41,290 bases of DNA from Candidatus Kaiserbacteria bacterium. Its GTDB lineage: Bacteria > Patescibacteriota > Minisyncoccia > Phycocordibacterales > Phycocordibacteraceae. Both the position numbers and the translations under genes were made by a program. This document shows, piece after piece, positions 1-2,791 of the stretch; positions within the stretch are counted from its first letter, which is position 1, and every line of letters starts with the position of its first letter. The DNA lies in the NCBI GenBank assembly GCA_029288865.1, contig JARIGM010000021.1, positions 1 through 41,290 on the forward strand, read 5' to 3'. The notes beneath the pieces were generated by a model. That model had not been told where the DNA came from. It did not search any database and was given only the letters and a program-made list of their open reading frames with translations.

Positions 1-141
1 ATAGCTGAGGAAACCTTGATCTTTCGACGTGCGGGGTTCTCACCCGCATTGTGGTTACTTGTACCTGCATTCTCACTTCCGTACGCTCCACCGTGGGTCA
101 CCCCTTGGGCTTCATCGCAGAACGGAACGCTCTCCTACCGC

Positions 142-662
142 TTGTGCATTTCATAGAGGGCACGAGTGTTGTTTGAAAGAACATGAAATATGTCGCAAAT
201 GACTGGACTCGAACCAGTATTCCTGCGCTTGATGGCAGTGCTCTACCATTGAGCTACATTTGCACATATTCAGAAACACACTCGCACCAAACGAAAGCGA
301 AGACAGAGGTGTAATGGCATTACGATGGTTCGTTTCTTTAACGCGGTCGAGCTTCAGACCACAACTTTCAACCTTCTCCAGCTGATCGTCAAAACGAATT
401 CCCACCTTGATTTTTACTTCTGATTCTCATCATCAGTGAAATCACGCTCACAGTGAAGTTTGGACCTCCCCTGTTTCCCCACAAGTTTTTACCGAACATT
501 CACCGCGACACACTGATCCGCGATTACTAGTCCTACTTATGAGATTCATATTACACATCTCGATGATTTAGGTCCGTTAGAACCTCTGTTTCTCGAGACT
601 CCTTTTCAGGACTCCGCCTGCTCTTGAGAGTATCCATCGGACACCCTCTATGAAATGCACAA
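142..662 (-). ncRNA. Intervening sequence (IVS) in 23S helix 45, highly structured, apparently non-coding
   Basis: Inserted between conserved ACCGAAACTGCGGG (~664-677) and GGTAGGAGAGCG (~128-139). Closed by the perfect inverted repeat ttgtgcatttcatagaggg (142-160) / ccctctatgaaatgcacaa (644-662). Nested internal stems 163-177/269-284, 303-310/582-589 and 462-467/570-575. Confidence 0.9.
194..263 (-). tRNA. tRNA-like element (pseudo-tRNA, ambiguous anticodon CAA/TCA) inside the 23S IVS
   Basis: GCAAATG-TA-GCTC-AATGGTA-GAGC-A-CTGC-CATCAAGC-GCAG-GAAT-ACTGG-TTCGAGT-CCAGT-CATTTGC-G. Acceptor, D and T stems are perfect; the anticodon arm is 4 bp plus an 8-nt loop; followed by ACA rather than CCA. 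Confidence 0.8.
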
Positions 663-740
663 ACCCGCAGTTTCGGTATGATACTTAACCCCGATCATCT
701 TCGGCGCAAGAACCCTCGATGAGTGAGCTGTTACGCTATC

Positions 741-1387: not shown

Positions 1388-2144
1388 TTAGAAAGTATTT
1401 AGCCTTACCGGTTAGTTCCGGCAGATTCATCCGAGCTATTCATGTCTCGAACTACTCAGGAATAGAAGCACAAAAGAGATTTATATTTCGCGTACGGGGC
1501 CATTACCCTCTGGGGCGTTGCTTCCCAGCAACTTCCGCTATATAGATCCTTTGTAACTTTTGCCATACAAGTATGGAGCTTCTACCCTACAACCCCATAT
1601 ACCGAAGCATATGGTTTGGGCTATCTCCCGTTTCGCTCGCCGCTACTAAGGGAATCGCGAGAGTTGCTTTCTATCTGCTCGAAGCATCGAACAGACAGAA
1701 AGCAACTCGCTGTTGTTTTATTTTCCTCTTGGTACTGAGATGTTTCACTTCCCAAGGTTCGCTCCTCATTCCATACGGAATGGGTAATCCATTAAGGATT
1801 GAGTTTCCTCATTCGGAAATCTTCGGATCAAAGGTTACAAGCCACCTCCCCGAAGCTTATCGCAGGCTAATAACGTCCTTCATCGCCTTTCTAAGCCAAG
1901 GCATCCACCGTGCACCCTTCACGTTTCCTGTGCGGAAACCTGAACACCACAATATCTAATGCAATATCAATTCACGCTATTTCTAGCGGTATTGATTACC
2001 TTTTATACATATTCAGTTTTCAAGGTGCACGTGGACTTTTCAAGAAAAAAGCCGCCTCAGGAGCGGTTAAAAGAGGTCGTTCGACCGTCCTTCATTGACC
2101 CCTCCTAAACAGTGATTTCTTCGTGAATATAGACACGTATAGCG

Positions 2145-2173: not shown

Positions 2174-2190
2174 ATGGGCAATGTTTCGGC

Positions 2191-2748
2191 CTAGTTACAG
2201 ATTGAAAAGTCGCTCTGGGTGCAGCCCTGGGATATAGAGAAAAAAGGGCCGTATAGGTTTGATCCCGCATGGGAATACGGCGGAGCAGTAACCGGTGGTA
2301 TTTCCACGTAATTATTCCATTTCACCCCGGTCTTATTCGGGGCATTCGTTGCGAGATAGGTACTGAGGACATATTTCGTTCCCCCTCCGTTATAGAGATA
2401 CTCCCCGCAATTTGAGCACATGTATCCTTCCCCCTTACCATTATATGGATCGACTGGGAGGGTTGAAATATAGGGAGATAATACCGAAGCCAGACTCGCC
2501 CAGTTCGTCGAGTTTCGGGAATCCACTCCGAGCGAGGGGTATGTGCCATTGTGATCGTCCGCATAGAGGGTCAACGCCGTTGAGATTTGCTTAAGCTGAG
2601 CCTCGCGCTGCGCATCATCGGCTTTCTGTCGGGCATTATTGAGCGACGTGAGAATGACTGATGAAAGAATGCCTATTATCGCGATGACGACAAGCAATTC
2701 TATGAGAGTGAATCCTTTCATTCCTTTACGCTGCAGATTCTTTACCAT
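2191..2748 (-). CDS. Type IV pilin / GspG-like prepilin
   Basis: KG|FTLIELLVVIAIIGILSSVIL N-methylation motif, ARQKADDAQR helix and LPVDP motif; start taken at MVKNLQRKGMKGF. Confidence 0.9.
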   Translation of the reverse strand: MVKNLQRKGMKGFTLIELLVVIAIIGILSSVILTSLNNARQKADDAQREAQLKQISTALTLYADDHNGTYPSLGVDSRNSTNWASLASVLSPYISTLPVDPYNGKGEGYMCSNCGEYLYNGGGTKYVLSTYLATNAPNKTGVKWNNYVEIPPVTAPPYSHAGSNLYGPFFSISQGCTQSDFSICN

Positions 2749-2791
2749 TCTTTCAGAATACCACTGACCTGGAGCTAAATTTATCTTAATC

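Follow-up and report, generated by a model that had tools for sequence, protein, structure and literature searches.

At its start, the window (the whole stretch of 41,290 nucleotides analysed here) carries the 5' part of a 23S rRNA gene, which is cut by the contig end (Table 1). The genome (G000 in our labelling, where G, C and L stand for genomes, contigs and loci) comprises 842 kb in 36 contigs, with the 16S rRNA gene on contig C7 and the 23S rRNA gene on contig C9, so that the rRNA genes are unlinked, a condition mentioned in the initial annotation of this DNA. Contig C7 also holds a tRNA-Ile gene (1811-1884) downstream of the 16S gene, without a 23S gene. The Rfam match of this 16S stops at model position 1520 of 1533, and at its 3' end (L001:1200-1240, G000:C7) the tail past 16S helix 45 reads GGAACAUAUCC, with no CCUCC-type anti-Shine-Dalgarno sequence. 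Upstream of the 23S gene (window 2190-2760, minus strand) lies a gene whose product, judged by eye, may be type IV pilin-like, with a putative N-terminal hydrophobic helix.

Table 1. Features of the 23S rRNA gene and its insert, in window coordinates.
Feature	Position	Strand	Evidence
23S rRNA gene, 5' part, cut by contig end	1-1931	minus	Rfam LSU_rRNA_bacteria, 1038.7 bits, model positions 1-1363
Intervening sequence (IVS) including closing stem, 517 nt (interior 161-643)	144-660	minus	Rfam alignment and flank distances
Closing stem, 5' arm	644-660	minus	Perfect complement of 144-160; paired in whole-IVS fold; stem conserved across many families of the order
Closing stem, 3' arm	144-160	minus	Pairs with 644-660, 17 perfect bp; paired in whole-IVS fold
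Sub-domain closed by GGACCU/AGGUCC (arms 570-575/462-467), holding the 16S-like stretch	462-575	minus	Local fold
16S-like stretch: h42, linker, h43 and following strand to CUUGU	481-564	minus	blastn E 4.4e-7; shuffles 0/300
h42-like hairpin GAGAU/AUCUC (arms 557-561/541-545)	541-561	minus	Local minimum-energy fold; this genome only
Conserved h43-like core: AGUA, 8-bp stem ending in an A-G pair, UCAG-type 7-nt loop, GAAU	498-528	minus	Rfam SSU local match, model R1, covariation
tRNA-like element, 6-nt anticodon loop, no encoded CCA	192-264	minus	Rfam tRNA, 57 bits; ARAGORN 'tRNA-???'

In the alignment to the Rfam model, the loop of an 8-bp hairpin at LSU model positions 1206-1226 is longer by about 500 bases; we take this hairpin to be helix 45, the classic site of intervening sequences (IVSs) in bacterial 23S rRNA. 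With its long closing stem paired, the predicted fold of the whole IVS is far stabler than those of shuffled sequences (z -7.8). The initial annotation had described a degenerate piece of 16S rRNA embedded in the 23S gene; the piece is indeed inside the gene, but outside the 23S core, in the helix-45 loop insertion. What had been overlooked is its host, an IVS that is probably cut from the 23S precursor and that also contains a tRNA-like element. As a separate observation, comparison with the Rfam model length points to one more additional hairpin, of only about 54 nt, in the 5' domain of this 23S gene (window 1657-1710, minus strand). Genes for RNase III (138.5 bits; C11:22052-22435) and for RNase P RNA (114.4 bits) are present in the genome. 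Among the sequencing runs, the best one contains 0.15 of the sampled words of the stretch, approximately the share of the conserved 23S flanks.

A group I or group II intron with a homing endonuclease was rejected, as no Rfam intron family matched window 120-680 up to an E-value of 10 and none of the four insert ORFs tested had a Pfam match. The 16S genes of the order are themselves interrupted: in 15 genomes (L085-L098, L100), insertions of approximately 420-1300 nt lie a few bases past CUUGUAC, of two recurrent types as judged by their first bases, and presumably represent the group I introns already described from CPR bacteria. Since 15 of the 18 fetched 16S loci are interrupted just past this motif, near the end of the 16S likeness of the IVS, a tie between the two was considered, but it was dropped because blastn detected zero similarity between the IVS and those introns.

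IVSs at helix 45 are known from Salmonella, Campylobacter, Coxiella and other bacteria, where they are reported to be excised by RNase III without religation (PMC2801512, PMC4990558, PMC11270868). The insert described here resembles them in its site, its closing inverted repeat, its patchy occurrence among close relatives and its lack of any intron signature. In 29 23S genes of the same genus, the distance from flank to flank is the basal 23-26 nt in 19 cases, 53-55 nt in three (corresponding to the long stem alone), 87-100 nt in three and 181-253 nt in four, compared with 520 nt in the analysed genome, so that the presence of helix-45 inserts is sporadic in this set. No homologue of the whole IVS was found in 60 relatives, and a pattern specific for the 16S-like module gave no match in the genome-contig collection. 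The sequence of the closing stem, in turn, recurs in metagenome and genome contigs and in many families of the order. Scans with the stem pattern also returned chance matches within a protein-coding gene (4 of 16 metagenome and 5 of 18 genome stretches, the latter in records labelled Campylobacter), and all nine were dropped; L109, L129 and L134, from the same scans, are cut at the stem. In the order-wide survey, 238 of 401 genomes had a match to the 23S flank, and 33 regions were fetched. Because the latter were chosen for matches running into the stem, stem-bearing inserts are enriched and the following tally of cargo is not a random sample: after removal of duplicates, 73 distinct helix-45 regions were obtained, of which 49 are long, and of these long inserts 26 contain one or more tRNA or tRNA-like genes according to ARAGORN, whereas seven contain an h43-like hairpin. 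Across this order of Patescibacteria, one conserved stem is thus combined with variable cargo.

The tRNA-like element of the window passes the Rfam tRNA model (57 bits against 29), and the closest of the genome's 38 ordinary tRNAs is identical to it at 57/73 positions. It has no readable anticodon in a 7-nt loop, ARAGORN assigning it a two-base anticodon, and its anticodon arm is shortened relative to homologues. In the homologues of its subfamily, a pairing between leader and trailer is kept along with the acceptor, D and T arms, while the anticodon arm is not; this pattern suits a processing handle better than a decoder. Such use of tRNA-like folds has parallels in plant mitochondrial t-elements, in mascRNA and in engineered tRNA scaffolds. 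As in these systems, the element keeps the acceptor, D and T arms and leaves the anticodon arm free, but the elements described here are located in a bacterial rRNA insert or spacer, and any processing of them by RNase P or RNase Z is putative.

The insert tRNA genes, many of which look canonical and encode their CCA, occur in L164 (G277), L154, L152, L156, L148/L136, L115, L137 and others. A tRNA-Trp(CCA) was found in four inserts (L138, L139, L144, L164), and in L150 (G334) and L152 (G233) ARAGORN reported insert tRNAs with the anticodons TTA and CTA, suppressor-like, which would read stop codons. In G277, the chromosome has a further, divergent copy of both insert tRNAs, tRNA-Gly(UCC) (56/74 identical) and tRNA-Trp(CCA) (45/75 identical), with CCA encoded in the insert copies only. 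The tRNA cargo therefore appears redundant and foreign-looking, and the idea that insert tRNAs are the sole genes for their anticodons is ruled out in this genome, in which both are duplicated.

Other inserts contain small ORFs of about 23-76 codons (L047/L125 from G019, L137 from G273, L149 from G129, L161 from G416, L165 from G206 and L166 from G459), several of them hydrophobic and preceded by an AGGAG-like (Shine-Dalgarno-like) sequence. Further rRNA-like pieces were also observed. In L124 and L135, 80-100 nt resemble the 23S 5' domain with 76-78% identity (E 2e-12 and 2e-10), and the GGGGAAAC at 473-480 of the window may be what is left of such a piece. The L138 insert (G341) has an additional hairpin, GGGGAUUAGAUACCCC, like the 16S 790 loop, and that of L139 (G435) includes a copy of the 23S strand preceding helix 45.

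We then focused on the 16S-like stretch. The minus-strand sequence quoted in the initial annotation is present at 494-561, and the 16S likeness extends further, over 481-564. When the IVS was compared by blastn with 48 16S-bearing loci of the order (118,539 letters), the best match related IVS positions 98-181 (window 564-481) to the h42-h43 region, with 66 of 91 positions identical, 10 gap positions and an E-value of 4.4e-7. Moreover, local alignment to the 16S of relatives scored 36, compared with 15.4 ± 1.8 for 300 dinucleotide shuffles, none of which scored as high. The 16S likeness of window 481-564 is real, and its description as a degenerate h42-h43 segment holds. The SSU covariance model tells less: its local 28-nt match (window 502-529) reached 10.2 bits, with an E-value of 1.3 over 4227 families and a gathering score of 50, so that by this test alone, of a kind suggested in the initial annotation, the likeness is non-significant. 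Alignment to the genome's own 16S confirmed divergence, with a score of 21 against 14.7 ± 2.0 (2 of 300 shuffles as high) and a weak blastn match to contig C7 (34 nt, E 1.2). As the h43 stem of this 16S is unlike that of the IVS copy, the stretch is no recent copy of the resident gene.

The GAGAT/ATCTC stem attributed to h42, and the GGACCT/AGGTCC stem said to enclose the module, both exist in the local minimum-energy fold, but the stability of that fold is no better than that of shuffles (z -1.27) and neither stem was seen to be conserved in the nearest homologue, L124. In this independent assembly, the order of parts is 16S-like, then 23S 5'-domain-like, then tRNA-like. Between its insert and that of the window, the 16S-like module aligns at 84% over 50 nt and the tRNA-like part at 74% over 171 nt, with nothing alignable in between, and the module is the best-conserved stretch of the interior. 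The hypothesis that the insert preserves a segment comprising the 16S 3' end, a spacer and a tRNA was not supported, given that the blastn alignment never extends past CUUGU into the 16S 3' minor domain and that the parts in L124 are ordered differently.

It could be argued that a 16S read from another organism in the same assembly was fused to the 23S contig, as the 23S gene lies at the end of a contig and misassembly is common in rRNA regions. We regard such an artefact as extremely improbable. The stretch is at best about 72% identical to any 16S examined, differing by roughly 28% mismatches and by indels, and it lies deep (80-plus nt) inside a continuous insert that is closed by a perfect stem. 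In addition, L124 and other independent assemblies contain homologous inserts with their parts in the same order.

The conserved element within the module is an h43-like core (Table 1), complete in six inserts (those of this window, L124, L105, L111, G341 and G435); in a seventh insert, L106, the stem and loop are present without the AGUA and GAAU flanks. A covariance model, R1, was built from the six IVS copies, that of this window included. Over the 842-kb genome, R1 scored the insert at 47.9 bits and the true 16S h43 at 27.9 bits (E 1.2e-4), with nothing more below an E-value of 0.7. Over 150 genomes of the order, it matched true h43 nearly everywhere and is therefore unable to separate IVS copies from true h43, but it also revealed two further contexts, described below; one match, in G230 (L206), was taken as chance, being AT-rich and devoid of the flanks of the motif. 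In the wider class, 67 of 151 genomes matched, with one match each except for G608, which had two, at contig ends. These matches are presumed to be true 16S, and no extra copy of the hairpin outside the order was seen in the approximately 150 class genomes at an E-value of 1e-4.

The ten non-16S copies, from all three contexts, were used to assess covariation, a test also run with seven copies. In this alignment, 86% of the stem cells are paired compared with 66% when shuffled and 35-59% in slid registers, and six of the eight pairs have changed on both sides. None of 500 shuffles reached the observed score, although the set consists of ten related sequences, few in number, for which a shuffle control overstates significance. 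A second comparison is provided by 35 distinct true 16S sequences of the order, in which stem pairs 1-3 are invariant and pair 4 is G-C in 33, whereas pairs 1-4 all vary, with compensation, in the six IVS copies. The insert copies are therefore not the result of repeated fresh capture from 16S, but evolve as independent helices, without re-copying.

Compensatory changes in a recurring core favour a selected structure over a mere relic, although the relic reading deserves careful consideration. It holds that a piece of 16S was captured by illegitimate recombination and has since drifted without function, its recurrence being due to common descent of a mobile IVS. The first half of this proposal, already raised in the initial annotation, stands, as the segment is derived from 16S. 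Its decay is also suggested by several features: the hairpin occurs in a minority of the long inserts (7/49), the h42-like part is unconserved, the window's own copy has deletions relative to 16S, other rRNA-like scraps lie in the inserts (the 23S 5'-domain-like pieces of L124 and L135, the 790-loop-like hairpin of L138, the 23S-flank-like copy of L139), and the IVS tRNAs of G277 are redundant with chromosomal copies, as would be expected of passenger DNA. Nevertheless, drift should break stems, which is not what the paired cells and double changes indicate; the module, moreover, is the part of the interior best conserved between the window and L124, and the core recurs in two other genomic contexts. 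On balance, we consider a functionless relic unlikely, though a serious contender.

The first of these contexts is intergenic, where a free-standing RNA approximately 170 nt long was found at L204:408-592 (G149), L208 (G170) and L205 (G044), with G398 (L210) having its 3' part only. This RNA has a terminal stem and a U-run, and carries a hairpin like 23S H13 followed directly by the h43-like hairpin. The H13-like hairpin, which corresponds to Rfam LSU positions 238-261, has the same AGUA...GAA layout as the h43-like one, and the RNA matched no Rfam family at gathering score. The second context is the 23S-5S spacer of G480 (L242:1466-1624, minus strand), where a tRNA-like fold of about 159 nt keeps the acceptor, D and T arms and has the h43-like hairpin and a further hairpin in place of the anticodon arm, an arrangement that again recalls t-elements, mascRNA and tRNA scaffolds.

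Recurrence of this kind could also be explained if the hairpin were a self-folding block borrowed from rRNA that acts in cis, aiding folding, excision or nuclease resistance of the insert without titrating any protein. This would agree with a shape kept while stem identity is free, with the company of other compact folds (the tRNA-like elements and the H13-like hairpin with its AGUA...GAA layout) and with the highly structured character of the whole IVS. However, AGUA, the A-G closing pair, the loop's UCA and GAA are invariant in all ten copies, and the invariant loop and flank nucleotides coincide exactly with the conserved ones of 16S, as if the sequence were read, beyond its shape. Most inserts also manage without the hairpin, and the free-standing RNA contains it together with a U-run end of its own. 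A purely cis-acting role therefore seems improbable to us. It should be added that the hairpin is absent from the predicted fold of the whole IVS.

Overall, the reading we put forward, with about as much confidence as doubt, is that the segment is 16S-derived cargo of a helix-45 IVS, whose hairpin has been kept by selection and is released from the rRNA transcript; the presence of the hairpin in only seven of the 49 long inserts counts against it. According to this proposal, the IVS would be transcribed with the 23S rRNA and then cut out at the long stem, presumably by RNase III, with the tRNA-like element offering a second cutting site, for RNase P. The released RNA would display the hairpin, with AGUA/GAA flanks resembling the S-turn of 16S at the h29-h43 junction. 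We take these flanks to be a putative S-turn on the basis of a known motif signature and of the Rfam structure line of the similar, H13-like 23S hairpin. The most likely activity would be binding of uS7 or uS9, or of another protein that reads this motif, and each 23S transcript would yield one such RNA, in a genome in which 16S and 23S are unlinked.

Several structural reports bear on such an activity. Residues Arg5 and Arg10 of uS7 and Arg109 and Arg122 of uS9 neutralise the S-turn at the h29-h43 junction (PMC5388290), the h28-h29-h43 junction is recognised by S7 (PMC13674486), and in a mitochondrial ribosome the h43 loop docks on h42 beneath uS14 (PMC10285412). Furthermore, the own mRNA of uS7 has an rRNA-like site to which the protein binds (PMC10931766). 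Given these contacts of S7 and uS9 and this precedent of an rRNA-like mRNA site, a hairpin that binds a protein of the 30S head is the most natural function, and binding of uS7 or uS9 is plausible by analogy; which protein is the partner, and whether a regulatory effect follows, is guesswork. The initial annotation had proposed a mimic of the 30S head. Of this, the h43 core is supported, as a selected structure, but the h42 part and the mimicry of the whole head are not. The module is also devoid of the 5' strands of h28 and h29, which form the other half of the S7 site. That the module tolerates changes in stem pairs fixed in true 16S further speaks against an exact imitation of the protein contacts there.

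Among the closest known systems are the mimics used in r-protein autoregulation, such as those bound by uS7 on the str mRNA and by uS8 on the spc mRNA (PMC10931766). There, as here, a short extra-ribosomal RNA resembles the rRNA site of a primary r-protein; in the hairpin, the likeness lies in the invariant nucleotides and the kept stem shape, and any binding is putative. However, autoregulation mimics reside in the mRNAs of r-protein operons and repress translation, whereas the h43-like hairpin is part of an rRNA insert, of a spacer or of a separate small RNA. Regarding the insert itself, known helix-45 IVSs are described as empty or as encoding an S23p-type ORF, while those of this order carry tRNA and tRNA-like genes, small ORFs and rRNA-like hairpins, their excision being putative. 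A 2024 survey of rRNA insertions in the CPR includes many short non-intron insertions at 23IS2 and 23IS4, which were taken for RNase III-type IVSs (PMC11270868). Its main text never mentions tRNA, and rRNA-like cargo is absent from the passages seen, although its supplements may list such inserts. In the literature searched, which covered articles without their supplements, no description of an IVS with tRNA or rRNA-like cargo was encountered. Helix-45 IVSs and CPR rRNA insertions are thus already known, and it is their RNA-gene and rRNA-like cargo that is apparently a new aspect.

Regardless of whether the hairpin binds a protein, these inserts affect rRNA-based classification, the calling of rRNA and tRNA genes and the filtering of chimeras for these organisms, and tRNA genes nested in 23S will probably be overlooked or marked as errors. 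Moreover, helix-45 IVSs, so far treated as selfish or as empty spacers, here carry RNA genes. A bolder proposal, which we consider doubtful as a whole, is that the tip of helix 45 works in this order as a cargo bay from which tRNAs, tRNA-like handles and a 16S head mimic (S-turn plus h43) are released after being transcribed together with the rRNA, with the mimic binding free uS7 or uS9, so that 23S transcription would report to 30S head assembly or to r-protein synthesis where the 16S and 23S genes are unlinked. Should the hairpin indeed bind a protein of the 30S head, an rRNA mimic would be acting from the rRNA transcript of the other subunit. If true, this would give ultra-small bacteria, whose one rRNA operon is split, a simple way of coupling the production of 30S and 50S subunits.
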